Positions 28,560 through 57,931 of a stretch of 64,000 nt of DNA are shown here, piece after piece. The translations under genes and the position numbers were made by a program. Source of the stretch: Tubulanus polymorphus (lineage: Eukaryota > Animalia > Nemertea); assembly GCF_964204645.1 (NCBI RefSeq), contig NC_134036.1, positions 7,974,812-8,038,811 of the forward strand, given 5' to 3'. The notes beneath the pieces are model-generated. The model did not search any database. It was given only the letters and a program-made list of their open reading frames with translations, and was not told where the DNA came from. How positions within the stretch are numbered: position 1 is the stretch's first letter; each line of letters begins with the position of its first letter.

Positions 28560-28575
28560 TTTCTTTTGTTTTGTG

Positions 28576-30784: not shown

Positions 30785-30860
<76 letters not shown>

Positions 30861-30862
30861 CA
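30649..30862 (+). repeat. Compound repeat: (CTTCTCTTCACACA)n, (GCAC)n, (CA)n
   Basis: Read directly. Confidence 0.97.
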
Positions 30863-32945: not shown

Positions 32946-35900
32946 ATGGACTCCTTGCAGAACTATCGCTGTTTAGTTGGTAATTATTACTGTAGGGCAG
33001 TATACAAAAGCCAGTCTGTATGCCATTCATATGTTAGAAATAGTGGCAATTTAGTTCAAGCAACTGGTGCAAAATTTGTAGCATCGCAATGGCTGGCCTG
33101 TCTGTATTACATGTATGCGTCTAAAGTTTATGATATCTGTGAAATGAGAAGAAAGTGTAGTTATTATGCATCTATATGGATTATACAATTGTGCATATAT
33201 AGGAATCACTTCATGTGTAGAAATGAGCAATCATGTTTCCCTTGTACTCCATTAGTGACATCATTGCATGAAGATTCTACTATACTTCTAGCAAATGATG
33301 TTGAACTCAACCCTGGCCCTGTACTAACAGGTGCATTTCACCAAGGTGATCCAACCATATTTTCTGCTGATTCTGTAGGAAAACAGTGTGTTCCTATTGC
33401 AGCATGTTGTATTTTATTTACTTTGTTAAAGCAAAATATGAATACTTGGGTAAGCAGTGATCTTGATAATATACTCTTACAGGGTGATAAGTTGTATAGG
33501 GATATAACTGACAGAAGCAATCAAGGCTATTTATTTGCAAATGATATTCCTCTTTATCTTTCTTGCTTTGAAGCACATTTTATTTTGAAGTCCAAGAAGA
33601 ATTTAGTGGGAGTATGTGTTAGTGTCAATGAAAGCTTAGGAATCCCAAGTGTTGCAGAAGTACTCAGTAACTACTTAGTCATCAATTCAAATTGTATAGC
33701 TATATTAGGCACAAATGCATGTGCTTTATTTGTAAGGAATGGTAAATATTACCTTTTTGATTCTCATAGCCGCAATACCTCAGGTTTCCCTTGTGCTGAT
33801 GGATCATCAGTTTTACTAGAATTTGACAGTCTGATCAATATTTTGGATTTCATCAACACATATATAAGCTCTATTAATGCTGCAGCTTATGATGTATCAT
33901 TCTATGATGTTAAATTGATTTCAAAGAAAGCTTATATACTAGGTATAAGAAGTCATACAATTGTTAAAGCTCCGAATACCAGTGATACTGTCCATGCAGC
34001 ATCTACTAGACCATCTTTGTCCAGTTTTAGAAGTTTATCATCTGTTCAATTGTACCTGGACGATCAAGCAAAAAAATTACAGGAAAAACTTAAGAAACGA
34101 TCATACATGAGGTCATACATGAGATGTTACAGAAAAAATGATGGTAAATTGCATATTAATAAGACGCAAAAACAGAAATGTCATGAGAGGTACCTTAACG
34201 ATAAATCATCGAAAAAAAAAACTTCAACAAGATCAACAATTAAAGACAAAGTTATATTTCCTAGGAAAAGATCACATAATCAAAGTGTACCACAAAGTAA
34301 TGTCAAACTCAAACAATCTAGAAATGGATCCATGTCTTATGGAATTTCATCCAATAATGACCATGTGTCAATCTCTAACTCAGAATCTACATGTTTTCAT
34401 GATTCTTTCTCAGCTGACTATTCGGCTTTCCTAGCAGCAGTTGAATGTGGGCCTGCTTATGTTTGTTCAGTATGCCAGCAAACATGGTTCAAGGTTTCTG
34501 TTTCAAAAGTTACTGCTTCAATTAATGCTAAAAACAGCCATTTATTGAATGATTGCCTTACACACATTATCTCTCATGAAAAAGAAGAATGGATATGTGT
34601 TACCTGTTTAGCAAATATAAACAATGGACTTATTCCGCGCTTATCTGTAAAAAATAAAATGGGATTCCCTATCAAACCACCAGAGTTGAATATTACGTCA
34701 TTAGAAGAAAGGCTCATAGCACTTAGGATCCCATTTATGCAAATACGACAACTCCCAGTTAATCAGCAGAAATTTATTCGAGGTGGAGTTTGTAATGTCC
34801 CAGTTGCCATTGAACACACTGTCAATACATTGCCTAGGAAAATAAGTGAAAGTCAAACTGTAGCTGTTCAAATTAAACGAAAGCTAGCCTACCGAACTGT
34901 TGAGTTTGCCGAGAATATTCGCCCTCTAGTAGTCATACGAGCATTAAAGTGGTTGTTAGACAATAGCCATTTATACCAAAATTCTGGAGTCTGTATTAAT
35001 GACCATTGGCTTTCATGCTTACATACTAATGATCCCGAGATACAACCTTTTCTTGAAGGTAGAATTTCTGATTCGAAAAAGAGACAACCCCAAAATCAAA
35101 ATCCACCTGAATCAGATTCAGACAGTGATGATGATGGATTTATAGAAATTGATAACAAAGAACAGCAATTAGAAAACATGGATACACTATTAGATGAAGT
35201 TGATCCAAATGTCTTTACATATGCTCCAGGAGAAGGCCAGCATCCCTTGGGACTATATACGGATAGTGACTCGGAATATTTATCTTGGCCTACAATATTC
35301 TGTGGCAAAGTGCGTCCTGATAACTCCGAGCGATATAGGCCAGTGCATTACAGTGATATCTGCAAGTACGAACTCCGCTGCATTGATAGGCGAGTTGCCT
35401 CAAATATTCCTAACATCTTTTATAAACTAAAAAAATTGCAAATATAACAGGTTTCAGACAAGGCGTCTATCTCAGTGCGTAGAGTAAAAACAAGGGGTAA
35501 AACGTATACAGCCGGTGATCTTGCAGATGAAACTGTTCGAGACAACATGGTCAAATTGGATGAAGGTTATCATATTTTCAAGTCAATCAGAAATACCCCT
35601 GCATACTTATCTAAACGTAAAAGAGATCTGTTTGCTTGTATTCGACAACTCGGTTTCCCAGCAATATTTTTAAGTCTGTCTGCCGCTGATACTAAATGGA
35701 CTCCACTTTTAAGAACTCTGGGTATTCTTATAGATGGAAAGCACTACACTGATGATGAAATAAAAAACTTTGATTGGAGAACCACAAGCCGCCTCATCAG
35801 TAACGACCCAGTGACTTGCGCAAGATATTTTGATCATAAAGTACAGCAATTTATAAAGCTAGTTCTCAAAAGTAAAAATAATCCGATTGGAAAAGTTTCT

Positions 35901-38900
35901 GACTTCTTTGCCAGAATAGAATTTCAGACCAGGGGTTCACCACATGTACATATGACAATATGGCTACATGATGCTCCAGTCTTTGGAGAAGATTCTGATT
36001 TGGAAATAGTTGACTTCATTGACAATATCATTTCAGTTTCATCTAATGTCCCACTTAGTGAACAAAAGTACCTTGAATATCAACGACATAAACATTCACA
36101 AACTTGTCGGAAAGGTAGGACAAAATCTTGTAGATTTGGATACCCACAACCACCAATAACCACTACTACGATACTTTACCCACTTGATATTGATTCTGCT
36201 GATAATCAATACAGCTTGCCACTGCATACACTTCAAGAATACTACACTCAAATTATTGAGGTTTTGAATAGCTATGGTGACGGCTCTGATATCTCTTTTA
36301 AAAATTTCCTTCAAAATGATCTCAAGATGTCTGAAAATGAATATGTTGATGCTATCAGATCTTCCTTATCAAAACCAAAAGTTTTCCTAAAAAGATCACC
36401 TAATGAAATTAGAATTAACCCGTACATGAAAAATCTTTTGGGTATTTGGCAAGCAAACCATGATATCCAATATGTTTTGGATGCGTACAGTATGGCGGTG
36501 TACATTGCAAGTTACACCTGCAAAGGACAAAAAGCTATGAGTACTATATTAAAAACTGCCTGCAAAGAAGCAAGAAATGACAATTTAGACTTAAAAAAAG
36601 CAGTCAGGCACATTGGCAATAAGTTCATTAACTCAGTTGAAATCGGCGCTCAAGAGGCAGCTTATCTTACTTTACAAATGCCCATTACTCGATGTTCCCG
36701 AGAAGTGGTTTTCATAAACACTTCACCACCAGATGAACGTACATATCTTTTAAAAGATTTGAACAGCCTAAAGAAGTTGCCAAAAAATTCAACTAATATA
36801 GAAGTTGACAACATATTAGTTCATTACTCAAGACGACGCCTTGAATTGGAAAATTATTGCCTTGCTCAATTTGTTTCTGAGGTTCAAAACCACAAATCAT
36901 CCACTTATGAGACCAGCCAATATGATGATAACATTGATGATGACCCTCCTTGTGATGGCCTTTCTAGCAATATGTCAGACAGCCAAGTAAAGCTAAAACC
37001 AAACGCTCGAATTATACGCTTTGTTAATTACAACAAACGCTCTGACCCAGAAAATTTCTTTCGAGAACGTTTATTGCTGTACGTACCATGGCGCAAAGAA
37101 AAAGACCTTCTACGTGACTTTGATTCTTATGAAGCTGCTTTCAAATCCTACACAGCACAAATCAGTATGATGATGAAAAAGTTTGAAGCACACAATGATG
37201 ACTTGAAATCAGTTATAGAAACTATGGATAATTTAAATGTAGATACTGATGAACAGCTACCTGACAATGACCAGACTTTGAGTATGGAAAGTATGTTCTT
37301 TGATCCTGATCGGCCAATTCACCAACGCATTTATGACTTGGCACCAGACATAGGTTTGACATCAGTGAACTACAATGTTGAAGTTTCTCTCCTTCCTAAA
37401 AGAATTACTGAACCTGAATATCATGCATTATTGCAATCACTAAATAAGAGACAGAATGAAATATTTACACATATAGCACAGCATATAAATCGAACTAATG
37501 ATGAAAGTCTCCATGTTTTTTGTACAGGCTCGGCTGGATGTGGAAAATCTATTGTAATTAAGGCTATACATCAGTACTTGTTGCGCTCTCTATCCTCTTT
37601 ACCAGGAGAAAATCCTGACGATTGTAAAGTCCTTCTTTTGGCCCCTACCGGTATGGCTGCTTATGGTATTAATGGCTCCACAATTCATGGTGCCTTTAAG
37701 ATCCCACCAAGTCGAGGATACAAGTATGAGCCGTTGTCAGCTAGTTCTTTAAATGCTCTGAGAACTAAGTACATGAACTTACAAGTAGTCATAATAGATG
37801 AGATTTCAATGGTTGGTGCTTGTATGTTTTATACAATTAATCTACGTTTGAAAGAAATAATGGGTAATCAAAAGATATTTGGAGGCGTACATATTATTAC
37901 CTTCGGCGACCTCTACCAATTAAAACCAGTGATGGATAGGTTTATATTTCAACCAGTACCTAAAGAATATGCTGCATTTGCTAATAATCTATGGCTAGAC
38001 AATTTTAAAATCTACGAACTTCATCAGATTATGAGACAAAAAGAAGATTTAGCTTTTGCTGAGCTTTTGAATCGTTTGAGAACCAACAATTTGTCCCACT
38101 TAGACAAAGGCATTTTAAAGTCTCGTATAGTCTCTTCATCTGATACAATATATCCTAAATCTGCTCCACATTTTTTCCCTCTAAAAATCCAAGCTCAGAA
38201 ACACAATGACCAGATATTTAATGCTGTCTCATCAGTTAAAGTATCAATAAAATGTACAGACGTTGTCTTAACAGATATATGTAGTTCAGTAAAAACTAAA
38301 GTATTATATGCCTGTGAAAACTGTAAAACTTATATAGATGCAAGTGGCCTTCCAAGAATTTTAAACGTTGCCGAGTCATTGATTTACATTACAACAGTTA
38401 ACATTTCAGTTGATGATGGTATAATTAATGGATCTGAATGCACTGTGAAAAAAATACAATTTGATAATAATACCAGTGATCGACCATCCATAATATGGGT
38501 AGAGTTCCGTAATACTGATGTAGGCAAACAACAAAGAAACAAATATAGATGTTTTTTTACTGACCAGATAACTGCTAGCTGGACTCCAATATTTGCACTG
38601 AAACGTTCATTCACTGTCAGAAATGTCACTGTTCAGAGAACTCAATTTCCACTTATGCCCAGTTCAGGCAGAACAATTCATCGTGCCCAAGGTGGAACAT
38701 TTGACACAATAGTTGTTGACATGAGTACTGGAACCAAAACACCTGCATCCATACTAACTCATTCACACTATGTTGCCCTCAGTCGTGTAAAACAATTGTC
38801 AGGTTTGCACATACTTAATCTAAATGAAAAAAAAATATCTGTATCTTCACATGTCATCCAACATATGGAATATATGTGCCAACACAGACAATTACAGCTA

Positions 38901-39593
38901 TGTTACACACCACTGTATTTAACTTTGCCTTTTGCATTAAAAATCATATATCAAAATGCTAGGTCATACTCAAAACATTATCTTGATATCAAAGACAACC
39001 CAAATGTCAAAGCTGCTGACATAAGTGGATTTTCTGAGTCAAGACTTATTTGTTCTGACCAAGAATCTGAACTTGACATGCCCGGCTACAAAATTATTCG
39101 CAATGACATGCCCCAACATCTTACTACTGCATTTAGACCACCACATGGCCTAATTGCATACTACAAAAGCAATATACACCTTCTAGAATCTTATGTTAGC
39201 AGCCAGGTCAACATAGAATATACATACATTTGTCTGCAATATATGCACAGACCTCACCAAATTGTCTTCGTTTACGTGTCACCACAATGTTCATTAGAAA
39301 CCCTATTCTACTCTATGAATGCATTGTCAAATCACCTAGACTTGCATAGCCCATTAGTAATTATGGGAGATTTCAACATGAAATCCATCGTTCATTCAAC
39401 TGACTACAATGACATATTAGCTGGGTTCATGGTAAACAAGTTTAATTGCCACCAACTTGTAAAACATCCAACAACTAAACATGGGAGCACACTTGACCTC
39501 ATCTTCACTAATGTGTCTATGTCCAACATTCAAGTAGGAATTATTGACACCTACTGGTCAGACCACAGTATGATTTACTGTTCTTTATTTTGA
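32946..39593 (+). CDS. Helentron RepHel polyprotein: 2A-like peptide, herpes-tegument-type deubiquitinase, HUH Rep, Pif1 helicase, AP endonuclease; one in-frame TAA at 35445
   Basis: ORFs 32946 and 35475 are in the same frame. DVELNPGP; GAFHQGD, GKQC, YLFDSHSR; FLSLSAAD, EFQTRGSPHVH, YIASYTCK; GSAGCGKS, IIDEISM, GDLYQLKPV, TIHRAQG, YVALSRV; QNARS, GDFN, TLDLIFTN, SDH. Confidence 0.93.
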
Positions 39594-39719
39594 ATACAGT
39601 AAAACTCTAATAGGCTATATCTGTACCACTGCATTATTCATTTCCTGTCTGCAAATGATAAAAAAACACTAAAAATCATCTGAAATACTTGTAACCAATT
39701 ACTTCTTATTCTTTTACAG

Positions 39720-42151
39720 ATGCTTTCTCTAAAACACGTTGTGCTCAACAACAGCAAATTTTATACCAAACCTGTGAAAGTCCTGATAGCTGCTAAACAA
39801 CTAAACCAGCGTACAAACAAATATGAATATGCAATCTGTGATGAAGAAAGAACGTGCAAGGCTATAAGTTATGAAGACTGCATAGATAGAAAATTAAAAG
39901 AAGGCGACTCTGTGCTTCTAAGGAATTTTGAAATGGGAAAGAAACATATGCTACTATCAAAAAAGTGTGTTATTACCAAAACAAAAAAGGTCAATGTTCC
40001 TCAAAAAGTAGTTGAAGAAGCCAGAGCTTTAATTATAGAAATAGCTCCAGTGGCACGTGATATTGCCGAAATCAAGTTCAATGATACTGACTCCAACTTG
40101 TCCAGTATAACTGGAAGAATTGTAAAGGTAAATTAATAACATCCAGAATCACTTTTCAAACATGTATACAAACATTAGACCTTTATGTACATAAGAAATT
40201 GACTTATGATGCTCAGAGCCTCTATAATTTATGAATAGCTACCATACTGCATTCATATGTAAAAATAAACTATAAATACCTTAGCTTGCTTTGTGGTAAT
40301 TATGCCACAAAGCATTCATGTCCAAAAATATTTCATGTCCGGGTTAGGGAATTATTGGCCACGTAATAGCTGTCCAGCCAAAAAGTTCTGATTTGATAAT
40401 CAGGTATGCTCTCATGCTGTTAAATTAATCCCCAGCTAAGCTGTCCAATAATTAATGTCCAATTAAACTTTTATGAATATTCAGTCACATGACAGGATAT
40501 AAACTAATCATAATCAACTGTAAAAATACTCATTTCAGGCCTATTCACTATATTATTGAAGATATTTCTTGTAATAATTACAAATATTTCTGTTTTACCT
40601 TATTTCCAGGACGAAGAACCTAGGGATGTTAAAATTACAGCCACTGGTGCTAACATTAAAGTCAGAAACATCGTTGTAGAAGACAAAACCGCCAATATTG
40701 ACGTTGTTTTGTGGGCAGACAAATCTTCATCTCCAATAAAACTAGGTGACAGTACTACCATCACACACCTGCGAACTGCTACAACCAAAGATAATATCAA
40801 ACAACTCAGATCAACTTATAAAACAGAAATCACAGTAAGATAGCTATTCATAAAGATAATTTTCAAAAATAAATTTCTCATGACGCCCCTACTTACGCAC
40901 AAAAAACCTTTAAAAAGACCTAAAAAATCTTATCCATATAATTGGACACCACCTAAATCTTATTTTCATGTTATTTGCATATGTTATTTTCAGTTAAAAA
41001 CTCCTGAGGTGACAATCGCAAATGTTACCTTCCTGGGCATTGAATCAGAAACTCCTCTACTCTACTATGTATCATCAATTTCAACAGATGATGAAGTTAC
41101 CACTTATTCCGTAGAAAAGAACCTACTTCTTCAAATAATCAATTTCAATGGAAATCAAGGCATGGAACAAGACGTCATTGAATGCATGACTGAAATTGGA
41201 CAAATTCAACTAAAGATTTTAGGTATTCTAAATGATTTTCATAAAAACGATATCTGACATATATTAAACTTTGCCTAATATGCTACAAGATATTCTACAT
41301 TTAGTTCAAACTGGTTCAAAAATAAATATATTTCCTGTTTGTACTGTTCAAGATGTGCAAGCTTACCAAAATATAACCATATATTTGTCTGTACTAATTA
41401 AAATTTGCAAAATCCAGCATTACCTCTATCGACAGAACCTGCTAATGTATTGTTCTAAATATTGATTTCAAAATTTGTAGGATATTATATGAAATTATGT
41501 AATTATTAAATTACGTATGTATATTTACAGGTGACACCATCATAGGTCTGGCAGAATATGACCTACAAAAACAGCCTAAAGCCTCCACCTCTGGTAAATT
41601 ATATTTCCTCCAAAAAAATACACATCATTAGTTAATAGCTGGCTAAATCAAAAATTGAGTCTAAACTCAAACTTCTAAACAAATTAAACTATACGTGCAA
41701 GGTCTAAAACTAAATGCATGTAATCCGATCATTAAAAATAACCTGTTTGTACATATACTTATTCACTTCATTATTAGTTAGAAACAAACTTTCAGTATGT
41801 TTTGATACTCATTGTTATAAAATTTTTACTATCCCTCCTCAAATATCCTGCAATATTATTATGCAATTGCTAATTTTCATGATCCAATCACTGCAATTTT
41901 CTTCCATGATAACAAAAATGATTTAAATCAAATTACTAGGAAATCCCCTCATATATACTCCCCACCACTTAATGCCCAAAAAATTTCTGGTAACATATTT
42001 ATCATGGCAACGTGAAAAATGGTCTAATAAATATTTTAATTTGGCAGGGAGTAACAAACCAGCTGTCACAACTCAAAACAATGTTTATGAAGATCCTGAC
42101 GCCCGTCTACTGGATGAGGATGATGATTCTGATGCTTGCCTGCTGGATTAG
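39720..42151 (+). CDS. Helentron OB-fold ssDNA-binding (RPA-like) protein, 5 predicted exons, about 342 aa
   Basis: GT-AG exons 39720-40127, 40610-40834, 40994-41222, 41531-41593 and 42048-42151 join in phase. OB-like strings (YAICDEERT, SITGRIVK, VRNIVVEDKTANIDVVLW) and an acidic tail EDDDSD. Confidence 0.75.
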
Positions 42152-42470
42152 AATATCTATGTACAACTTGTGTTATCAAATCATTTCTGTTACTTTAACG
42201 TAATTTTAAATAGTACGACGACAATAATTCCAATGTTAGCCTACAGGATTAAAATATCTAGGTCCAACAGGTGTGATCAAATCATTTCTGTTATTATATC
42301 TTAATTTTATACAAATTTGAGAACAATAATTCCAACGCTAGCCTGCGTTGTTAATATCTATGTCATTTCTGTTAATATATCTTAATTTTATACAAATTCG
42401 AGAACATTAATTCCGACGCTAGCCTGCGTTGTTAATATCTATGTCATTTCTGTTATTATATCTATTACTA
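42152..42470 (+). repeat. Degenerate 80-100 bp tandem repeats (3-4 copies) in the Helentron 3' region
   Basis: aatatctatgtcatttctgtta...aattccaacgctagcctgcg recurs. Confidence 0.8.
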
Positions 42471-43163
42471 TATTTTTATAGTCTTTGCTTCTATACACTT
42501 GGCAACTTCAATTTTATACACTGTAATAGGATTTTGGGAGGCAGCCTTATTTGGTTAATACGTCCAAACATAGAAATCAATTTAATCAACAACCATTCAA
42601 CGTCTGATGATGTCATCCATGTTAAACGAATCATAGTGTTATAGGACAAATCTCTTTATAATGCTAATTCACTGTATTTACCTATAAGCATTTATTCATT
42701 TTTAAAATGTTAACAGAGTTATTTTATCACATATTGTTATTTGATAAGTATTATTTTTGAATATGTAATAAATAAATTTAGTTTCTATACAAAATTTATA
42801 TATTTTTCTCATTTTACTAATTGGTATCCTTGCAACCATCAGCACAACCAAAAATTTGAGACTTCATATATTTATTTCCTAAATTAACAAACCAAGACAC
42901 AATATTTGACAACAATTATTGAATTTTAACTTGATTTATTCCTATTCAAATGTGTATTTGTTGTTAATTCTTAATTGATTAAATATAACTTGTACGTACT
43001 GCCATATATTCAACTATGTATATTTACTGAAGAATCCACTTAATTAGGAATTACAACAATTTATCCCATTTACACGAGTCTGTATTAAAAGTGAATGACT
43101 AACTATCGACAACAAACTAACTGATACTATTCAAGGTAAACCACTTTGCCTCAGGGCAATTTA

Positions 43164-43235
43164 TTTCATATGTCGAGCCATATTACTTTTTCTTAGAAGT
43201 TCACCACAAATTTCGCATGCTATCTTCTCATCCAT
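43164..43235 (-). pseudogene. 5' end of the Polinton Zn-finger gene split by the Helentron
   Basis: MDEKIACEICGELLRKSNMARHMK joins KHDENYKPPKINCPKC at about 29446, completing a C2H2 finger. Confidence 0.8.
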
Positions 43236-43303
43236 TTATTTAGGAAAAATTTTATTAAAATTAATTTTTAGTGATGAGCAGTAATTTTTTTATGTTATAA
43301 ATA

Positions 43304-44062
43304 ATGGTAGAATTAAAAGAATACAGAATATTTGTTGATTCAAGAAAACTTACAAATTATAAATCTCATAATTTACTAGTACAATTAGATAGAGAATTTA
43401 AGAATTGTGTAGATTTAAAATTAGTTAATATAAGTTTATGTAATTCTTTTTATAATATATCGAATAAAACTATTGAACATAATACTTTTTTAATTCATAT
43501 TAGAAATATAAAAAAATGGTTTCATCTATTTCTAAGACCAGGATTATATAATTTAGAAACATTAGCTCAAGAAATTAATCGTAGAGCACGGTTGAAAATT
43601 AGAAAAGATGATAAATTTTTAATAAGATTTATAAAAAGTGATAGCTCAAATAAAATTAAAATAAAGGTATTTGATGAAAGTCAACATGCATTTATAGTAA
43701 AAAAACCATTAGCTAAATTGCTAGGAATTGCACCAGATGTTGTTACAGTAAACGTAGAAGGCATTTCAAATATAATACCTTTTACACACTTTTATATTTA
43801 TTGCAATTTAATTGATCCTACAAAAACATTTGAAGCAACTAAAGATACAACATGTAATTCTAGTATATTAAATATTTTACCATTGAAGAATGTTAAACAA
43901 TTTGGAGCGCAAATAAATTATAATTTAACAGAATGTGATTTCAAACCTTGTATTCCACATTTCAATAATTTTAAATTAGAAATAAGAAATCATAATGGTT
44001 ATTTAATTGATTTGAATAACTTTCCTGTAATATATGAATTAGTTATAAGATGTAGAGAGTAA
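43304..44062 (+). CDS. Polinton minor capsid (penton-like) protein
   Basis: Intact 252 aa. IFVDSR, NSFYNI, GLYNLETL, YIYCNLID and EIRNHNGYLIDLNN follow the pattern of single-jelly-roll minor capsids; the gene context agrees. Confidence 0.7.
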   Translation: MVELKEYRIFVDSRKLTNYKSHNLLVQLDREFKNCVDLKLVNISLCNSFYNISNKTIEHNTFLIHIRNIKKWFHLFLRPGLYNLETLAQEINRRARLKIRKDDKFLIRFIKSDSSNKIKIKVFDESQHAFIVKKPLAKLLGIAPDVVTVNVEGISNIIPFTHFYIYCNLIDPTKTFEATKDTTCNSSILNILPLKNVKQFGAQINYNLTECDFKPCIPHFNNFKLEIRNHNGYLIDLNNFPVIYELVIRCRE

Positions 44063-44078
44063 TTTTTTCATTATATAA

Positions 44079-44435
44079 ATGAATATAACTGTTGGGCCGA
44101 GCATATGTTTTGGATTTGATTTTAAACGTGAGAAAGAAATGAAATTTAACATTACTGATGTAATTACACATATTAAAAATATTGCATTTTCTAATGAAAC
44201 AACATTTGAGTATGAAACAACAATAGATAAAGAAACTTTAAATGTAGAAAAGATTACTAATTTAATTAGAGAATCTTTAAGATTTTATGAATTAGATGAA
44301 GATTTTATCATCGATGATATTAAAAAAATAATAATTGAAATATATACAAATGAAACTAGTAATGAAATAAATGTTGAATTAATCATAAATAAGTTAACTA
44401 AATATTTTGATGATAGTAATTTTTTTGATAAATAA
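44079..44435 (+). CDS. Polinton hypothetical protein (118 aa)
   Basis: Intact ORF with TAAATG start in the compact gene cluster. Confidence 0.55.
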   Translation: MNITVGPSICFGFDFKREKEMKFNITDVITHIKNIAFSNETTFEYETTIDKETLNVEKITNLIRESLRFYELDEDFIIDDIKKIIIEIYTNETSNEINVELIINKLTKYFDDSNFFDK

Positions 44436-44657
44436 ATGAGTGATAATAAGTGGATAATAACTGGATTATATAATGGCGCATTACTATCAGTTGGAACTGT
44501 TGGTTATTCAATGGTATTAAAAAAAGTATTCAAAATGGGAAGTGTTAATGTTGATAGATTTGATATCAATGATATCTTAAAATTAACATTAGCAGTTACT
44601 TTATCTAATTTAACTATTGATTATTTGGAAAAACAAAAATATATTCCTCCCATATAA
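44436..44657 (+). CDS. Polinton small hydrophobic protein (73 aa)
   Basis: Intact ORF, two hydrophobic segments, TAAATG start. Confidence 0.6.
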   Translation: MSDNKWIITGLYNGALLSVGTVGYSMVLKKVFKMGSVNVDRFDINDILKLTLAVTLSNLTIDYLEKQKYIPPI

Positions 44658-44681
44658 ATGCATAATTTTTTTGCTAAATAA

Positions 44682-45073
44682 ATGGCTTCTGCAATTATAA
44701 CTATTATAGGATCGGCAATTGTTAACGCTTTAGCATTTACTGGTGGTGGATATTTATTTAAACATATTGATAAAAATAGTTCATTAGGAGAACAAAGAAG
44801 ACATAATTTAGCATTAGAGAAATACAATAAAGCAGCAGAAGAATATAGAAAAAAACGACAAAACTATATGGATTACATCAATAAAGAATTATATGATCAG
44901 ATGATGCAATGAGTTTATATAACGCAGTAACAAATAAAGAAAAATTACATCTATACAGACCTAAATTATCAGATTATTATACCCCAAGTAAAGAACAACA
45001 GAAATATGAAATAATTTGGATTTTAGGTGGAACTGTTATTGTTATATTTGTTGCTTATAAGTTTACTAATTAG
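44682..45073 (+). pseudogene. Polinton small membrane protein, frameshifted at about 44905
   Basis: N-terminal hydrophobic AIVNALAFTGGGYLF, RRHNLALE coiled coil, and a C-terminal TM segment (IIWILGGTVIVIFVAY) in a shifted frame. Confidence 0.6.
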
Positions 45074-45092
45074 TAATTTTTTTTCTAAATAA

Positions 45093-45518
45093 ATGGAAGA
45101 TAATATTGATATTATTCCTCATGATATAAATAAAACTAAATTAAAAATATATTTAGAAAAACAAATATTAGAATTTGAAAGTGATTTAAAAGTTAAAAAG
45201 AAAAAATATTTAAAAAGTAAAATTATATATTATTTGATTATTAGTGGTTCGGTTACAATTAGTTCTGTAGTAACATTTCTAGCAATATTCAGTCCATTAA
45301 CACCTTTAGCTATATCAATTGGTGTATTAGGATTAAGTTCGAGTGTTTTAACCGGTATAAGTTCAAAATTAAATATAAAAAGTAATAAAGAAAAAATTAA
45401 AACTAATATAAAAAAAATTAATAAATTAAAGAACACACTAGATTATATAATAAGTTTAAATGGTCATATAACAGTTGAAGAACAAGATCAATTATTAAAA
45501 GAATTAATAAATTATTAA
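45093..45518 (+). CDS. Polinton predicted two-TM protein (141 aa)
   Basis: Central hydrophobic hairpin flanked by Lys-rich helices; TAAATG start. Confidence 0.6.
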   Translation: MEDNIDIIPHDINKTKLKIYLEKQILEFESDLKVKKKKYLKSKIIYYLIISGSVTISSVVTFLAIFSPLTPLAISIGVLGLSSSVLTGISSKLNIKSNKEKIKTNIKKINKLKNTLDYIISLNGHITVEEQDQLLKELINY

Positions 45519-45534
45519 TTTTTTAATTATATAA

Positions 45535-46904
45535 ATGGCAGATAGTTTTCCAAAAGCTTTCCAATATAATAAATCAATTAAATATAATATTCCAGCAATA
45601 GATTTTAATAAAGATGTTACATATAGAAATGAAGTTTTAAATTCATTAATTGATTTATATATTTATGTTACTGAAAGTAATAATTTTCATGTAAAGATGG
45701 AAAATATATTTCATGTAAAAAATTGAAAGATGAAAAACAATGGTTATTAAAATCTAATATGAAGTATTGGCAGAACCAATTAAATTTTGCTGTTTATTGT
45801 GCAACAACAGGATGTGGAATTAGTTGGAATGATCATTTGAATAATTCTAAATATAAATTAATTCAAAGTTTATTTAGATTTCATACATACTTTCAAATAA
45901 GAATAATATTAAATGAATTAGAGTGCGCTTTACCAGGATCAAGATATTTTAAAGAATTAGATAATAATATTAATTTATCAAAGTTTTATAAAATTTGTAA
46001 TGAATTTAATGAAGATATAAATAATTCTGATTTTAGAACAAAAATTGAAACAATAAGATCACTTCCTTGCCCTAAAAAGATTGCAGAATATTGTGCACTT
46101 CCCATACCATCTAATAGTTTGTATAATATCTATAGTCATAAATTAGGTTATGGTAAAATAGAAACTAAGGATTTAGAAACATTAAATTTTAATAAATTAC
46201 CGACATTTTATGATAATTTAAAACAAGAAAACAATAATGGTTGGGTTTATTTCATTTTAGAAAATAATGAAGGTTTTACTAAATCAGGTATACAAAGAAT
46301 AAATCAATCTATTAGAACTTATTTGATATGTATTTTAGGTGCGCAAGTTGAAACAAGATCACCAATAATTGGAAATTTGAATACATCATTCGATACACAG
46401 AAACAATTTAAAGTTTTATTTGAAGATTCAATTCATAATGATAAAAATAGATCGATTCCAGAAAACATTATAAGATATCAAAATTATTTAGATAAATCAC
46501 ATATTAGATTAAATTATTGTATAAGCCCTAATCTATTAATTATTTCTAATGATTTAGTATTAAAGATGGGAAATATAATTGGTTATAATAATCTAATTAA
46601 AACTGCAACAATAAATAATTCATTTGGATTAAATGATATAAATAAAAAGATTATTACTGCTCCAAAATTAATGGAAGGTGAAAAAAATAAAAAACATATT
46701 CAATCAACAGAAACTAAAACTAAAAATATTAAATTAAATAATGATTCTAAACCGGATTATAACACATCAGAAGATATAAAAACTGATATTATTCAACATG
46801 ATATAATTAAACTAAATGATGATAATAAATCCCATGAAAATACTAAATTAGCTATAACTTGTATAGGAATTGTAATCGGAGGAATATTATATTTTAAATT
46901 TTAA
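45535..46904 (+). pseudogene. Polinton hypothetical protein with C-terminal TM anchor, frameshifted at about 45720
   Basis: ORFs 45535..45726 and 45723..46904; WQNQLNFAVYCATTGCGIS; C-terminal LAITCIGIVIGGILYFKF. Confidence 0.6.
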
Positions 46905-46920
46905 TTTTTTTATTATGTAA

Positions 46921-48350
46921 ATGGCAGAAAGTGGAGAAGGTTTTCCATTGGATGACATGGGAAATAATAATGAAGGATATATTGATGATGAACCACAACC
47001 TGATTTTAATGAAACTAATATTGATAATGATGATGAATCAGCATATAATTCTAATTTAGCAGATAGTGGTTCTAAAGTCCCATCAACAGATGAATTTAAT
47101 AGAAGAACTAGATCGAAAATAAATCCTGAAAATGAAATTCCAGGTTTATCATAGGAAGATATAGAAAATAATAAATTTATATATAAGTTTCAAGATGTAT
47201 TTGAAAGATCTGGATATAATATAAATGATAGAGGCGCCAGACTTTTAGTACAAGATTTAAAGTTTTTAGATGGTGAATATTATTATAAATTGAAAGATGA
47301 TTATTATATTAACATCTCTTATAAAAATCAAAATATAATATTAGCAGAATCAACTTTGCTTAAGTTAGAACCAGATAGAATTAAGAGAATAATTAATAGT
47401 AATGAAATAACCGATGTAACACAAAAAGAAATGAAAAAAATAGAAAAGAATTCAAACAAAGAATTGATGACTTATTTAAAATAATCGATGATAATCCAGA
47501 AACGGAAATGGAAGAGAATAGAGATCGATTAGATAAATTAAGATCTTCAACACCCGAAACATCTAGAAGAGATATTCAACAAATTGATAATGATTCAAAT
47601 CAATTACAAGTAGTAAAACATTTTGATAAAATGTTTGATACAATTCATTCATTTGACGAAGAGATGAATAGTATTTTAGATACACCCGGTACTGAAACTG
47701 GAATAAATCGAATACTATCTTTACTAGAAAAAGGAATACTTGATTTAACTGATGATGAATTAGAAGCATTTCCTGAACAAGCACGTAGAGAAATTAAAGG
47801 TATGCAAGAAACAGCTGGTGAAATTGCTAATATTAAGATGAGATTTTCTAAAATAACCATGTTAGAAAAAGAATTAACTAATGCAAATGAAGAATTAAAA
47901 CAATTAGAATTAAATAGAGATCTTCAATTAATCGAGGAAGCTGATTATAAAAGCAGAAAGTTAGCTTTAGAAAAAGAAATAGATGATTTAAAATATAACA
48001 AAGAATTACAGGAAAAAGAAAGAGATACATTATTAAAATCATATGATCTTAATCATATTAAAAAATTAAAAGTTAGTTTTAAAGATTTGTTGATAAAACC
48101 AGATTCTAAAATATCATTGAAAGATAGAATAAAGTTATTATTTAAATTAGAAGGAATAACAATTCTTTCAATTCTAACAGCTGTAACTATGTTATTTACA
48201 ACAATTGGTTTAGCAATATCAAATGCTTTGAAATCTACTCCTACTCCCAATAAACCAGATAAACCCCCGAATGATAATAATTCTATACAAGATAAAGTTA
48301 AGGATGTTTAAAGAAATTAGCAAAATATTTATGGGAACTATCTTTTCTTA
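46921..48350 (+). pseudogene. Polinton coiled-coil protein with TM segment, disrupted
   Basis: ORF pieces at 46921, 47290 and 47508; long heptad-like region, then GITILSILTAVTMLFTTIGLAI. Confidence 0.55.
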
Positions 48351-48359
48351 ATAACTGGT

Positions 48360-48710
48360 GAATGGAAAATACATATATCCTTCAAATAATTCGAGAATAT
48401 CTAATGCAAATTAAGCAGAACGTAATCATCATATAATTACTCAATCCTTCAAATATTAATCCAAGTGAGACTTTATATGTTAGAATTCCTAGATTAAATC
48501 AAAATACTTTTCATATTTATCAAACAGTATGTATTTATCAGCTGATATAGAATTAACTAGTAATAATAATAATTATGTTGTAGATAATGTTGGTAGATAC
48601 TTATTACAATAATTTACTATGAAAATTGAACCGGAAACTGTTTTTACAATAGATGATTATAATTTATTTGCACATTATAATGATTTATAATTAACAAAAG
48701 AAAATTGAAA
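48360..48710 (+). pseudogene. Polinton major capsid protein, N-terminal part
   Basis: With frameshifts: AERNHHIIT, NPSNINPSETLYVRIPRL, VVDNVGR, IDDYNLFAHYNDL. Continues at 55741 after the nested insert. Confidence 0.7.
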
Positions 48711-49427
48711 AATAAATTGCCCATGGGCAAAGTGTGGTTTACCGTGAAAGCTAGAGGTTGTTTTGAGTAAGGGCATTGCTTGAAAAATCTTTTTAACTTG
48801 TGACTTCAAAGTTCTAGAAGTTTTTATTGTATTTCATCTTTCTTAAATGATTATTTTGTAGTCAAATAAGACCAAAGATAAATATTTGTTTATGGTCTAC
48901 CTCCAAAAATTCGTAGGGTACAGGTAGGCGCGGCAGGGAAACTATTCTATATTTTCAAAAAAATATTTTTCACGATATGAAAAAATATTCGAATAAAATT
49001 CATATGATGTCACATGTCAGAGGGTGGCTGAGAGTCTTGGGGACGAAACATCTTCAATTTACGGCTTAAACACCGGGGCGTAGATCGTTTTAAATCCTGG
49101 AATTTACCACGACAATAATATTCAGACTTCGACCTATACCTATAGTTTGCTGCTTAGTATTTCCAGGTCACAAGAAATTACGATTTGTTACAATTTCTAT
49201 CAAACAGAAAATTACAATTTTTGGAACTAAAATTTGTATTTCCGAGTAGTACTTACCCTTTCCTATGGTTTTTGCCAATATTTTCTAAATTTGGATTTAT
49301 CGCCAATGGTTTTTCTATACGACCCGGCCCTGCGGTATTGCATTTAGCCACCGGCGAAATCATCTTTTTTCGTCATAGCAGACCAAAAAAAAAAACAGCT
49401 ATGCGGGGCAGGTGGGCGGGATTCCCA

Positions 49428-49523
49428 CCATAGAAAGGGTAAGTACTACTCGGAAATACAAATTTTAGTTCCAAAAATTGTAATATTTCCATCGAGTACT
49501 GTACCCTTTCCTATGGTTTTTGC
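49428..49523. other. DIRS internal complementary region (ICR)
   Basis: The first half is the reverse complement of 49211-49267 and the second half of 55245-55283, joined at T49484 (TTGTAA-T-ATTTCC). Confidence 0.95.
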
Positions 49524-49730
49524 TAGACTAGCCTAGCACAAGGATGGTGGGAAAGGTAGATAGAAAAACCACCGCTCAAACGCAAGGTAAGAGGGAAAAA
49601 GAGAGCACTTACCCAAGCACGGAATGGAGCACTGTAGCACAGGGAAGACCGGTTGGCCACAGTGAGTCCGTCCAGCTCAGGGGCCCCCCCAGAATTTTGC
49701 GAAATTAATACTTGCAGATATGAGCCCAAA

Positions 49731-50879
49731 CTATGTACAAGGATACACCCCCTGTGATCCTGATAATGCTACATAAATATTCGACACTAAAGGGTCCGAT
49801 CGGAAAGAACGGACACCTTGAGCCATGACAACAGGACCAAGTGAAGCTAATGAGCCTAACTGGCCTGAAACATCCCGTAAATAAAATGACGTGAATGTCG
49901 ACGGTGAATTCCAAAAGGCGGCCCGACAGACTTCCTCCAACGGAGCACCCGAAAAGGCTGCGCAGGAAGTAGCCATAGACCTCACTTGATGAGAAACGAC
50001 TCCCTCCGAGGAAAGATTCTCCTTCAATAAAATGTCCTTGATCATTGAAGAGACCCATCGGGCTACTGTGTCCCGCGAAATATCACCCTTTAGGTGATCC
50101 AGCAGCGGAATAAATAACCGCTCCCGTGAACCCCTCCGTGAAGCAGAGCGATCTAAATAGAAACACAACGCCCGCACAGGACATAAAGTCCTGTCTGGGA
50201 TGCCCGGTTCCACTCGATGTTTTAGGGCTTCAATTCGCCATTGACGCCCAACCGAGCCTGGTCGTTGGTTCTTTGCCATAAATTCCAAAGCAGGCCGCAG
50301 CGAAACAAATTCATTCGCTGGCCCAAAGACAATGTGACCTTGTCGGACTGAAAGCGCATGAATCTCAGAGCGACGGGCCGAGCAAGCCAAGAACAGCAAA
50401 AATACAGTCTTTTTTGACAAATTTGCAAAAGACGCTGCCGAAAGAGGTTCAAATGGAGCCTCCATTAACTTCTTCAAAATTACAGACAGATCCCATGGTG
50501 GAACTGTCCTTGTTACCCGAGGCCGGGAAATAGAAAACCCAGCAACCAGCTGGGATATCCGATGATCCCCTGCTACATTTGGCCATCCAGAAGCACGCAA
50601 TGTATGAGAAATCGCGGAGCGGTAACCTTTAATAGTTTTGACCTGTAAACCTTTTGCTACAAATAGGTGCAGTAAAAAATCTGCCAATTGAGCTACAGAG
50701 GGTGAGCATGGATCAATTTCCCCTGCAGCACACCAATCCGCAAAATGACTCCATTTGGCATCGTAAATGGTACTTGTTGATGGCCGCTTAGATCCTGCGA
50801 TAAAGGAGGCAGCCTGTTCTGAAAAGCCTGAAGCTGACAAGGATCGCTGGACAATGGCCAGGCGAGCAGATTTAACCAC
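49731..50879 (-). CDS. DIRS tyrosine recombinase
   Basis: SARRSEIHAL, AKNQ, LCPVRAL, HQVRSMATS and FWNSPSTFTSFY give the R-K-H-R-W-Y catalytic set. Confidence 0.93.
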   Translation of the reverse strand: MVKSARLAIVQRSLSASGFSEQAASFIAGSKRPSTSTIYDAKWSHFADWCAAGEIDPCSPSVAQLADFLLHLFVAKGLQVKTIKGYRSAISHTLRASGWPNVAGDHRISQLVAGFSISRPRVTRTVPPWDLSVILKKLMEAPFEPLSAASFANLSKKTVFLLFLACSARRSEIHALSVRQGHIVFGPANEFVSLRPALEFMAKNQRPGSVGRQWRIEALKHRVEPGIPDRTLCPVRALCFYLDRSASRRGSRERLFIPLLDHLKGDISRDTVARWVSSMIKDILLKENLSSEGVVSHQVRSMATSCAAFSGAPLEEVCRAAFWNSPSTFTSFYLRDVSGQLGSLASLGPVVMAQGVRSFRSDPLVSNIYVALSGSQGVYPCT

Positions 50880-52740
50880 TGGCTGTTTGGATGATGCCGA
50901 AGATCCCCTGAGACAGAAGCGATGGGAAATTCGGAAGAATCCTGGGGTTGTCGCACAGTAGGTTGAGAAGTGGTAGGAACCATTTCTGAGCCGGCCAACA
51001 TGGTGCTACCAGAACTATGTTGCAATTGACTGATCTCTCTATTTGATCCAGTAAGCGCGGCAGGACTGGTGTGGGCGGGAACGCATACGCATGCATCCCT
51101 GACCAGTCCAGAGAGAAGGCATCGACCCCCCACGCTTCCGCGTCTGGAAACGGGGACACAAACAGAGGACACCTCCGATTGAACCGGGTGGCAAACAGAT
51201 CCAGCAGCGGATTGCCAAAAATGCCCCGAACCCGATCGGCTACTTCTTGGTGGAGAACCCATTCTGTCGCAATAGCCTGACCTCGACGAGACAGAGCATC
51301 GGCCATCACGTTCCTTTTCCCTGCTAAATGTGCCACAGTCAGGGACACGCCCTTTGTCTGGCACCAAAGAAGAATTTTGGCCGACAGACCTGTGAGGGTT
51401 TCTGAGTGAGTGCCCCCTTGGTTCTGAAGGTAAACCCTCACTGTTGAATTGTCTGTGGCTAACCAAACGTGGTGGCCCTCCACTCTCCTGTGAAAGACCT
51501 TCAGGGCCTTCCACACGGCCAGCATTTCTAGGAAATTTATGTGGTTGGTGGCCTCGTAGCGAGACCATTTCCCGGCTTTGACTCGGTTCTCCAGATGTGC
51601 CCCCCAACCTTGGTGACTGGCATTCGTGAATACACGAACTGGAGCCTCTAACGGGGCTAGTGACACCCCGAGCCGAAGATTCGTAGTGGCCGCCCACCAC
51701 TGAAGATCCGGACTTAGATCGGTTGGAGGTACGGGAATCAAGGCCTCCCAGTTGCCCTTCGACTGAGACCAGAAGACCTTCAAATATTGTTGCAAGCGCC
51801 TGCTTCTGAGGCGGCCTAAGGGCACCACCAGACCCATGGAGCTGATGGAGCCTAGAAGCCGTGACCAGTAACGAGCTGTTCTCGGGGTTGTGGACACTCC
51901 CGCTACAGGTTCTTGAAGTTTGGCCACTCGAACCATAGACGGAAAGACTTTGCCGATTCGGAGATCGAAGTCCATGCCGAGATAAGTGAACTGTTGGGCC
52001 GGCGTCAACTGAGATTTTTCCCTGTTTACGCGGAACCCTCGCTGATGGACTAAGTCCAAGACTGAGGTCATTGCCTCCCGACATTCCTGAGCCGAATTCG
52101 CGACTATTAACCAGTCGTCGAGGTAAACGAACAGTCGAACACCCCTTGACTGAAGTACCTTCTGAACTGACTTGACCAACTTGGTGAAAACCCACGGGGC
52201 CGTACTGAGGCCAAATGGAAGAGACCTGAATTGGAACTGGCGGCCTTTCCACTTTATCCTGAGAAATCGCCGAGATTTTGGGTGAATTGGAACCTGAAAG
52301 TAAGCATCTTTCAGGTCCAATGAAGCCGCCCATTGACCCGGACGGAGCCCTTGAATCACGTCCTTGGGCTTGGTCATCCGGAACCTTGGAATGTCTAGGT
52401 GCCGATTGAGGGATGACAGATCTATCACTGTCTCCGTTGACCCCCTGTGGCCTTTGGTACCATGAATATTCGAGAAAACCAGCCGGGAGAAGTTTCGTTG
52501 CAAACTGGTTCTATCGCTCCCTTCTCTGCCAGTTCCTTGAGAGCCGGAGAGATTAAGGCCTCCTGACCTGGTTTTGGCCGCATGTCGGGAGGTGACCTCA
52601 TCAGGCGCGGTCGCCTTAGGAAACGGAGACGGTAGCCCCGAGAGACGACCCGGGAGGGCCAACCGTCTCCAAAGAGGTCGGACCAGTGGGTTGCTGCCTG
52701 CTGCAGACAACCTCCCACTGGTCCCAAGAATTCATTTCGA
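50872..52740 (-). pseudogene. DIRS pol (RT-RNase H-MT-like), frameshifted
   Basis: Same motifs as copy 2. The RNase H Asp is mutated (FTNAS). Frameshifts at about 52430 and 50907. Confidence 0.92.
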
Positions 52741-54950
52741 GTTTTTCCGAAAGGAAGAGCCCCTTTTTGGAGCCTTCCCCTTGCCTCGATACGAACCGGA
52801 ACTGTTACGACCGGACGAGGCTTGACACGATTGTTGAAGTTGCGCGCTAGTTCTCCAACCGGCATCCGAAGCCGCCTGAGAAAGCGCTGAAGTTTGAGAT
52901 GGTCCTGTTTGCGTCCGTGCCGAACCTTGCGCCGCCGGCGTCGGACCAGAACGCTTTTTCCACGCAGTTCGGGGGTTGGACTTGGCCTGAACCTCCCGAA
53001 TCTTCCTCAGCTCTGCGGAAACCGGAGCGCACCAACCGGAGAAGAGACGTGAAGACGTCCCCAATGGGGCTCTCAGCAAAGCATTGGACACCATATCCGG
53101 TAGACGAGTTTTGGCACTGGAGTCCATCACTGACTGACGGGAGGCTAACACCAGATTAGCCTGACCCCGAACCGACAACGGAATTACATGCGAAACAGAC
53201 CGAGCCAAAGATTGGATAATCCGGTCCATTCCCTCCAGTTTTAGGGCAACTGACTCTGGGTCGGAGCCCGCATGAACGGCGGCGTGAGTCTCGCGAAGCT
53301 CACCCGTCAACACCTTAAGTGCCATATCTTGAAACGAACCAACCCTGGTAAGATTGTCCAGGATTGACGTCATGGCCACCAAACCGGACTTAGGCAAACG
53401 AATACCCGACTGTGCTGTAACAGTATCCGGGCTGATCAAAGTATAATCAGCATCCAGGCAGTTATGACTGTGATCCACAGCACCTGGAGTTGCGTAATAC
53501 GCCGAGCGAAATGCGCCTATAGGTGGATCGGTTGAACTAAAATATTTCCCAGATTTCATACCCCGTTCTGGAGGGGGAAATGAAAAAGTTCCAGGCCGAC
53601 ATTCACCCCATAATTGCGTATCCAATCGAGCCCATTCTCTTGAAACCGCTGACGATTCCCGTAAAACGTTAAGATCGGAGTCCTGAGGGCGATAAGCTTC
53701 CATTGACTCACCGACCAGAGGAGCTGCTGTGGGCTTAGCGCGAGTTGCCCCGTGCTTGACAAAGAACTCACTTATCATCGCTCTAAATGGCATGTCCCCC
53801 GCTGGTTCGGATAAAACTGAACGGGACGGAGATACATTGCGAGCCAGGGAAGCCCCCATCGTCTGGGGCAACCCACAATTGCTTGCGACAGGAACGACCC
53901 CAGAAGGAATTGCCGCCTCTGGGACCGGATCCTCATTGAAATCAGACCCTACCGCAGCATCCAGGAATTCAGAGTCAGAATTCCGAAAAACTGAGTGGGC
54001 TGGCGAACTTCTAACCGGACAATCAGGAATAGGCTTACCTGTTGTAGAAGTTGCAGCGACTTGTTGCGACGAAGATAACAAGTTTAAAATTTTCTCCTCA
54101 AATACATGGAAATCCTTCTGAGTCAGGTATTTTCCAGTATCCCGACGATCATGCCGACTTCGGTGACGGTCCCTCGAACGGGATCGCGACCTACTAGAAG
54201 AATCGCTTTCATCGCTAACCGACGTCGACGAACGATGAGAAGACCGACGGCGAAACTTCCGACAATAACGATCGTAGTCCCTCTCGCGATCAAACCTTGA
54301 TCTGCGAGAAGGAGATCTTGCTCGTTTATTACGCTCACGGCGTCTAAATCTAGTGGGAGAGCGAGCTCTATCCCCGGAGCGACGATCAGAATCAGACGAT
54401 GAACGTACCGGATGTTTTGAACCGGACGACGTCTGGACCGGACCGGTGGCCGAACCGGACCGGACCGGTACCGACCGAACCGGTGCGGGCCGTTCGCGAC
54501 TACCGCGGCGCGCGCTCGGTTCCGAACATGTAGTCTGAACCGGCCGAACCGGCCGAACCGGTGAACGACCAGAGACCGGTGACCGGAGACCGGTGCCGGT
54601 GAACCAGCGTTCCTCCCCGGTGAACGGAGTTGGGAAGCCGATCGTACCTGAACGACCGGCGACCGCTCCGCTTTACGATAAGAAACAGGATTAGAAACGT
54701 CGGTTGGCACATCGGCCGAAACCGACGAATCCCTGCTAACTCGACGACGATCTCTTAGTTTAAGAGCCTTATCGGCCCGAAGCCAAAGGTCCTCGGACCA
54801 CACGACGCAAATATTGCAAGGATTGCTCCTTGCACATATTTGACCGGATTTGCGCCTGCACGACGCACATGAATCGTGGTTGTCCCAGGCGCCAAACAAA
54901 TGCCCGCATCCCTCCCCGCCACGATGCTGACCCTTAGGAGGGGGTGGCAT
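52732..54950 (-). pseudogene. DIRS gag-like ORF, frameshifted
   Basis: Same deletions as copy 2. Confidence 0.85.
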
Positions 54951-55740
54951 AATTACCTGTTACAAATTAAATCAATTCAATTCAATCAAATTATATTTGT
55001 AAATAAAATTCTTACGGAAAAAAAGAAATCAGGGATAACCCCCAAACCGAACGGACTCACCGTTACGAGAGTGAAAACTCCCTAATATCCTAATTCCCAG
55101 ATTTTTACGGCGAAAAAATCCAACGCGTTCTACTGCGAGAACGCCAAGAAAAAAGATGATTTCGCCGGTGGCTAAATGCAATACCGCAGGGCCGGGTCGT
55201 ATAGAAAAACCATTGGCGATAAATCCAAATTTAGAAAATATTGGCAAAAACCATAGGAAAGGGTACAGTACTCGATGGAAATACACAGCTCTCATCTTCT
55301 TCTACGACGAGCAGCCTGTTGTGTTATCATACCAAGCGTGCACGCGCCAAGCAGCTTTACAGCATCGCCATATAGTAGTCTGTATGAGCGTGTGTGCAAC
55401 AGTCTAGTGTTTAGCACTCCCGTCCCGCGCACATGTGGAGGCCTTGTGTAGTGAACGTTCGCTTCACTTCAATCTCAATCAACACAATCACTGGGTATTA
55501 AAATGAAACAATACCTATGGCGATATGTGAAATAATTTCTCACCGGCAATGAGCATTCAAAATTCGCACACATCTAGTCCAATGAAACGTTCGCCATAAA
55601 TGGCTTCCCCATAACTATTTTAGTAGTGCCGTAATTCTCCGTATATCCCAAAAGCAGCATATCACATTCGCTCTTAGAGACGACGCCCCTCAATCGAGTT
55701 CATTGCAATTTTATACGCAAGAGCTAAGAATTTTCCCGCA

Positions 55741-56500: not shown

Positions 56501-56551
56501 AGATATTATTCAATATTAATAATATAGAAATAATATTAATGATATATATAA

Positions 56552-57700: not shown

Positions 57701-57931
57701 ATGAATAAGGAATTATTTATATTTGAACCTCATAATATGTTAATTTCTGGTGTAACAAAATGTAATAAAAACTTATTTTTATATTGAATTCATTAGAAAC
57801 TGTTTATAAAAACTATTTTGATATAATAGTATTATTTTGTCCAACATATGAATTTAATCAAACTTATAATAGAACATTACTAGAAATAATAAAATTATTG
57901 TATTAGATGCTATAACAGTTAAAGAAAAATT
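57701..57931 (+). pseudogene. Polinton packaging ATPase, N-terminal fragment
   Basis: Same as 14510-14740. Confidence 0.7.

Follow-up and report, generated by a model that had tools for sequence, protein, structure and literature searches.

A window of 64,000 nucleotides (nt) of Tubulanus polymorphus DNA (contig NC_134036.1) carries, in its AT-rich pieces at about 23.1-29.5, 43.2-48.8 and 55.7-58.0 kb, a predicted Polinton-type element that is broken and multi-copy, and nearly every gene of its lineage begins at one motif: a run of T, a spacer of 5-7 nt and TAAATG laid over the start codon. This motif is very probably a core promoter, with transcription starting on or beside the ATG. We lean, by a modest measure, towards the view that the RNA polymerase of a helper virus would read it as a leaderless core promoter. 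Twelve gene starts in the window are supported by homology and were scored. The twelfth, that of a capsid-like gene, is degraded, and the other eleven are listed here; L121 and L122 are related loci described below.

23107..23128, forward strand: T-run and TAAATG at the start of the gene for a protein-primed B-type DNA polymerase (pPolB), first gene of the unit (ATG 23126)
43233..43254, reverse strand: motif at the start of a zinc-finger/VLTF3-like gene (ATG 43235), divergent from the gene at 43304
43282..43306, forward strand: motif variant TAAATAATG at the start of a 252-aa gene at 43304, the orthologues of which in L121 and L122 start at TAAATG
44060..44081, forward strand: motif of a 118-aa gene (ATG 44079), from the start alignment
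44417..44438, forward strand: motif within the 3' end of the upstream gene, the stop of which is the TAA of TAAATG (ATG 44436), from the start alignment
44663..44684, forward strand: motif (ATG 44682) of a gene that is a single 139-aa open reading frame (ORF) in relatives and is split here into 44682-44912 and 44909-45073, from the orthologue alignment
45074..45095, forward strand: motif of a gene for a SLATT-like two-helix membrane protein (ATG 45093; weak Pfam match)
45516..45537, forward strand: motif (ATG 45535) of a gene that is a single ORF of ~440 aa in relatives and is split here into 45535-45726 and 45759-46904, from the orthologue alignment
46902..46923, forward strand: motif of a long, broken coiled-coil/membrane gene running from 46921 to ~48311, from the start and orthologue alignments
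56549..56554, forward strand: TAAATG without T-run at the start of a broken rve integrase gene (ATG 56552); duplicate at 13379-13384
57698..57703, forward strand: TAAATG with TT at -11/-10 at the start of a broken A32 ATPase gene (ATG 57701), the TAA being the integrase stop; duplicate at 14507-14512

TAAAT(G/A) covers the start codon at 11 of the 12 starts, ten times as TAAATG and once as TAAATAATG, and TAAATG stands at 10 of 12 gene starts compared with 45 of all 596 ATGs of the element (7.6%; p 3e-10). Every one of these sites had been named in a first-pass annotation of the window and stands; its two further entries, at 13382 and 14510, are copies of 56552 and 57701 in a 99.6% duplication and had been counted twice. 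The run of five to eight Ts that it described upstream is present at nine starts and missing at 56552 and 57701, the latter keeping only the TT noted above. At these nine starts the parts keep a fixed register, with TAA at -16, the T-run from about -13 to -8 (centred 10 nt upstream), the spacer and then TAAAT. A pattern derived post hoc from the nine T-run sites occurs 9 times, against 0.2 expected from 300 dinucleotide shuffles. TTTT at -11 to -8 precedes 8 of the 10 TAAATG at starts and 2 of the 35 others (p 9e-6), and T occupies -10 in 9/10 and 9/35, respectively. Counted over the whole element, TAAATG shows no more than a mild excess (45 vs 31.3 +/- 5.2, a count reached by 4 of 300 shuffles), while its placement at starts is significant. 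The signal is this placement together with the upstream Ts, rather than the abundance of TAAATG. The small intergenic gaps of the annotation hold for co-oriented genes (0-24 nt) and fail for the divergent pair, which lies 68 nt apart.

The survey of related Polintons showed the motif held in close relatives and in a second clade. Eighty family loci from metagenome contigs, the best of 470, were used as relatives. A quick tree of 63 rows, which left out the 17 loci without a long enough ORF, grouped the window with L121-L124 (support 99) and gave a second group of L127, L193, L162, L132, L167 and L169 (support 87). We counted the two motif clades separately, which is not a claim of independent lineages, using ORFs of at least 100 aa and dropping L169 from the second clade as a near-copy of L167. 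The DNA of L121-L124 is 67-79% identical to the window, and these are therefore elements distinct from the window copy. TAAATG opens 24 of their 26 ORFs (background 10%), and T occupies -10 in 25/26 TAAATG at starts vs 20/53 others (p 4e-7). In the second clade, at 38% GC, 13 of 18 starts carry TAAATG, as do 3 of 6 starts in three unplaced loci. Twelve other AT-rich loci (35% GC; at most ~40% GC) have it at 3 of 69 starts, and the 55 GC-rich loci that remain have it at 7 of 362; most sampled family members lack TAAATG starts. The motif also opens a deoxynucleoside kinase gene on the reverse strand of L121 (10343-10981; PF01712, 110 bits). Deoxynucleoside kinases are common in large DNA viruses. 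In L133, L143, L147 and L194, which are other AT-rich family members, genes often appear by eye to start after TATATA-like runs, possibly another promoter type or another helper.

The motif is not a product of AT content, because elements at 38-44% GC have it and other AT-rich members of the family lack it. It is very improbable that the motif is no longer used, whether left over from an ancestral stage that depended on a helper or arising as a by-product of AT-rich sequence. The window copy is broken throughout and the closest clade is ~80% AT, as such a reading would have it; against it stand the same GC comparison and the variation among host copies. Of the 26 places that vary within a test stretch of 306 nt, four lie in the 14 spacer positions and one at -11, but the 12 positions of TAAATG and the -10 position have none, all small numbers.

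Nor is the motif an effect of stop-start abutment, because few starts abut an upstream stop: at 2 of the 11 window starts the upstream gene has its stop codon in the TAA of TAAATG, as happens at 1 of 15 in L121, where two more have a 3-nt gap. A Kozak context was also rejected, T standing at -3 in 26 of 29 starts of the two motif groups (13/14 and 13/15) vs a purine in 37/52 and 65/101 control starts. A splice acceptor was rejected for want of an AG after the T-run. Divergent pairs carry the motif on both sides, with start codons 68 nt apart in the window, 72 nt in L121, 18 nt in L193 and 14 nt in L162 and L195. The shortest of these would form minimal two-way promoters with TAAATG at both starts (L162:2764-2783, L195:1982-2001, L193:584-607), and in the 14-nt pairs the Ts at -12 to -10 of each partner are the complement of the opposite initiator. 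Head-to-head starts 14-18 nt apart leave no room for ordinary 5' untranslated regions (UTRs), which fits initiation on the start codon.

These junctions also bear on a reading in which the motif acts on RNA, as a signal for translation start or reinitiation on long mRNAs or as the poly(A) or termination signal of the upstream gene. We consider this improbable, if slightly less so than disuse. The few abutting stops would agree with it, as would AATAAA in 4 of the 11 sites and the scarcity of T-runs in coding strands. TTTTTNT occurs there 3 times vs 8.1 expected and 5 vs 10.4 in the two motif clades, against 55 vs 50 and 25 vs 26 in controls; in L121 alone the count is 4 vs 8.9, reached by 1 of 500 shuffles. 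However, stop-start junctions make up a minority of the sites, and a register fixed at 16 nt, roughly one and a half turns of the helix, suits a read-out of DNA. The full motif also precedes pPolB, as the first gene, and each gene of a divergent pair, positions without an upstream RNA to terminate, and for this a pure terminator or poly(A) signal was rejected. Transcripts of poxvirus early genes end at T-runs of the TTTTTNT type. The first-pass annotation had pointed to this signal, and 5 of the 9 T-runs do contain TTTTTNT; they are better read as the upstream element of a late-type promoter, which may double as a terminator. T-runs of about 7 are reported to terminate transcripts in African swine fever virus (PMC7163114).

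The promoter proposed by the first-pass annotation withstands explanation by AT content, abutment and Kozak context, and it fits the vaccinia late consensus, which we took from reviews. That consensus has TAAAT(G/A) over the start codon, a spacer of 5-7 bp and, 10 nt upstream, a conserved T set among Ts that are conserved less well (PMC11980589, PMC5294985). As judged by sequence criteria, the Polinton motif has the same parts, namely TAAAT(G/A) over the start and a T at -10 in a T-rich block behind a 5-7 nt spacer. In the intermediate complex, TAAA is reported to be recognised directly by the poxviral polymerase (PMC12917281), and in cytoplasmic yeast elements slippage on TAAA-type initiators is described as yielding poly(A) leaders (PMC6831550). 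From the motif, its fixed spacing, its conservation in relatives and its match to the vaccinia layout we propose the following steps, at the level of sequence only. T-run, spacer and TAAATG would form a poxvirus-late-type core promoter at nearly every gene of the lineage, and a large cytoplasmic DNA virus, as a co-infecting helper, would supply the RNA polymerase that reads it, likely assisted by the element's own VLTF3-like factor. Transcription would start inside the AAA, and slippage of the polymerase would add a 5' poly(A) leader, so that the T at -3 would be absent from the mRNA. Every gene would yield a near-leaderless transcript of its own, with the T-run perhaps terminating the transcript upstream as well. 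The integrated copies might further be the dormant, virophage-like stage of a parasite of a poxvirus-related virus. No RNA polymerase gene was found among the scanned ORFs of the window or L121.

The VLTF3-like gene had not been named by the first-pass annotation. Its C-terminal piece matches PF04947 with 29.6 bits (cut-off 25), and the gene starting at 43235 on the reverse strand appears to continue at 29450-28200, beyond a Helitron-bearing insertion. An intact 697-aa homologue begins like the last ORF of L121 and covers both gene parts, the first 24 codons being matched by eye. A model of an intact 446-aa homologue was used for a fold search, in which 7 of 10 matches at E<=0.001 were named late transcription factors, the best including those of cowpox virus, two entomopoxviruses and several giant viruses. 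The zinc ribbon and C-terminal helical domain that mark the VLTF3 family (PF04947) are thus indicated by Pfam for the window piece and by fold for the homologue. With moderate confidence we regard the protein as VLTF3-like, with added zinc fingers of the C2H2 type. A single-sequence fold of the window piece was unusable (pLDDT 45), a PDB fold search with the protein returned zinc fingers only, and a word search found no homologues of greater length. Among the 80 related loci, VLTF3 was not detected by a local profile, nor among 69 ORFs by Pfam; the loci are partial, and therefore a linkage between motif and VLTF3 cannot be drawn. VLTF3 is reported from some Polintons (PMC11131425).

This factor cuts both ways, since its role could be either the diversion of a helper polymerase or the recruitment of host RNA polymerase II (Pol II). 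The main rival to the helper is accordingly a core promoter read in the nucleus by host Pol II, recruited by the element's zinc-finger/VLTF3-like factor with no helper needed. We rate it as unlikely, though clearly the strongest of the alternatives. The element encodes the factor, and its extra C2H2-type fingers could read DNA; 6 of the 11 sites contain TATAAA; the element is an integrating one, with a copy number from the tens up to about a hundred; and coral polintoviruses are reported to carry VLTF3 and to be expressed in host RNA (PMC11131425). Against this, head-to-head starts 14 nt apart allow no normal 5' UTR, and the T at -3 would be a poor Kozak base if part of the mRNA. The VLTF3-like gene itself starts at the motif and hence would need a prior activator, and the exact layout of T at -10 and TAAATG would have to be a coincidence. 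The coding strands carry 4.5-5.6 AATAAA per kb and are not depleted, a weak point as the controls likewise are not.

Other results weigh against the helper polymerase. Viruses that lack a polymerase of their own and apparently rely on the nucleus are described as keeping VLTF3 (bioRxiv 2026.08.29.747986), which also favours Pol II. The model of the VLTF3 homologue is of low confidence (pLDDT 63, pTM 0.36) and matches poxviral and non-poxviral factors alike, and the intact homologues miss PF04947 by sequence. A motif scan of viral contigs found no helper candidate: of 120 matches, 19 had an ORF of 60 aa or more downstream, many of these phage-like with a ribosome-binding site in the spacer, and the motif was not enriched in the 3 viral contigs examined from that scan. 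Nor were relatives of the element found in viral contigs. Orthologous sites in relatives share ancestry, and start contexts were seen before the clades were drawn, so the grouping is not blind. In the second group, 4 of 17 starts owe their Ts at -12 to -10 to the complement of the partner gene, and without these T stands at -10 in 9/13 vs 9/24. For the window on its own, the scarcity of TTTTTNT falls short of significance (3 vs 4.9). Finally, the intein in the pPolB gene points to mimivirus-like rather than poxviral polymerases.

The first-pass annotation had taken that intein as fitting a helper cytoplasmic DNA virus, and we rejected it as evidence of a poxvirus helper. Among the matches listed, its closest relatives lie in other protein-primed polymerases (63-47%), followed by those in giant-virus-type RNA-primed polymerases including that of mimivirus (39%). 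In a quick tree of 44 rows from 120 listed matches, the eight rows without an RNA-primed polymerase domain formed one clade (support 100), separate from all others. By sequence, this is an intein of giant-virus (mimivirus-like) type from a clade spread across Polintons; it appears to record an old exchange with large DNA viruses and lends a poxvirus helper no support. The giant-virus-type Pol-c intein clade in protein-primed polymerases (26682-27746; P0197-P0203) includes some clusters with more than 100 members.

The element's genes run in the order pPolB with intein, reverse-strand zinc-finger gene, a run of co-oriented genes, capsid-like gene, rve integrase and A32 ATPase. The parts not listed above are as follows.

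23126..28204, forward strand: pPolB gene (PF03175, 50.6 bits, cut-off 25.8), the ORF broken by several stops
26682..27746, forward strand: LAGLIDADG intein of 355 codons in pPolB, placed at the YxD|TD (Pol-c type) site, with one internal stop
28200..29450, reverse strand: broken body of the zinc-finger, zinc-ribbon and VLTF3-like gene, its probable start at 43235 lying across the insertion
29450..43160, no strand assigned: insertion foreign to the Polinton, with Helitron Rep/helicase-endonuclease ORFs at 32946-39593 (ORF domain matches)
48340..56500, forward strand: putative capsid gene (415 aa in L121), its start degraded, split by a GC-rich reverse-transcriptase element at ~49250-55290

The integrase orthologue of L121 matches PF00665 and a chromodomain and aligns to window 56786-57697, and its A32-like packaging ATPase matches PF04665 and aligns to 57701-57882. 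The pPolB, rve integrase and A32-like ATPase that mark Maverick/Polinton elements (Polintoviricetes) are thus all predicted here. Genes of 415 aa and 254 aa are conserved in the module position expected for the double jelly-roll major capsid and penton proteins; neither has a meaningful sequence match in PDB sequences, Pfam or PHROGs, and by position and size alone the 252-aa gene at 43304 is called penton-like. The adenovirus-type cysteine protease of Group 1 Maverick-Polintons has no match among the scanned ORFs of the window or L121, both partial. We tentatively place the element with group 2 Maverick-Polintons, whose gene content varies. No inverted pair among those listed for the window bounds the Polinton, and near 57960 other repeats cut off its right end.

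Window 50010-62074 repeats 6840-18883 at 99.6% identity. Summed read depth of a DNA run, a rough measure, is mostly 200-1,100 over the gene module, ~100 near 47.1-47.9 kb and 7-15 just left of the module, giving a rough copy number of tens to about a hundred; the broken window copy would not be the active one. The Helitron ORFs at 32946-39593 look intact and include a protease-like domain (PF04843). A 154-nt tandem array with flanking direct repeats (20108-22965 and 63467-64000) lies just upstream of pPolB and may be an element end or a host repeat. A GCG/GCA microsatellite in the integrase gene (57075-57150 and 13900-13960) differs in length between the duplicate copies. Window 1-19218 and 50010-64000 contain duplications of 2-12 kb, both inverted and direct and nested in one another, that are 98-100% identical, through recent duplication or as an assembly artefact.

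We consider the motif real and well controlled, its promoter function likely and dependence on a helper plausible. A full-text literature search returned no report of this motif in a Polinton; it covered main texts, with subscription literature thinly represented, and the supplements of PMC11296320, PMC11131425 and PMC8502044 could bear on the point. Promoter sharing with the helper in protist virophages, and Polinton-like parasites of entomopoxviruses proposed from co-occurrence, are already known from published accounts. At stake are the mode of transcription of Polintons in animals and their nature, be it that of autonomous viruses, of transposons or of parasites on larger viruses; published accounts report no virion. 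A sharp 22-nt motif makes the question of transcription directly testable. It is possible, and we hold this more loosely than the helper polymerase itself, that at least two clades of Polintons in animal genomes are endogenous virophages of an undiscovered poxvirus-related virus, the whole genome being wired to its late polymerase and the element's own VLTF3 diverting it. The start motif would then be a barcode by which animal Polintons could be sorted according to helper, sister clades using other motifs. If a helper does read the motif, the virophage lifestyle known from protists would extend to multi-copy elements in animal genomes, an unsampled poxvirus-related virus would be predicted in the host group, and promoter motifs would be a cheap means of assigning helpers. 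If host Pol II reads it instead, the element would be a minimal system in which VLTF3 steers this polymerase.

Known systems share parts of this picture. Group 2 Maverick-Polintons and coral polintoviruses are described with pPolB, rve integrase, A32 ATPase, variable gene content and, in some, VLTF3, but their main texts lack the word promoter and report no promoter motif or helper dependence (bioRxiv 2026.06.19.733378, PMC11131425, PMC8502044). The elements associated with entomopoxviruses are likewise Polinton-like and proposed as poxvirus parasites, but the evidence there is co-occurrence in occlusion bodies, and they are reported to carry a cysteine protease and no rve integrase (PMC11296320); the main text of that account does not use the words promoter, motif, VLTF3 or intein. 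Virophages and Polinton-like viruses are reported to share the promoters of their helpers, as in Mavirus/CroV, Sputnik and Gezel-14T/PgVV (bioRxiv 2022.07.28.501842). As here, these are small integrating elements of the capsid type without an RNA polymerase, the genes of which bear a large-virus promoter motif; as described, they differ in having protist hosts, mimivirus-type motifs and a known helper, whereas our element has a likely animal host, a poxvirus-type motif and a proposed helper. Compared with the vaccinia late promoter, the layout of which is the same, the closest Polinton clade adds TAA at -16, and all gene classes use the motif, the polymerase gene included, while the start site and poly(A) leader are predicted from sequence alone. 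The yeast pGKL virus-like elements are reported to be linear, pPolB-type and AT-rich as well, with TAAA-type initiators and poly(A) leaders made by slippage, but they have genes for an RNA polymerase and a capping enzyme of their own, neither seen in the Polinton (PMC6831550). African swine fever virus similarly ends its transcripts at T-runs of ~7 and slips at start sites; these are described as ATA sites giving AU leaders, in contrast to the TAAATG of the Polinton (PMC7163114).

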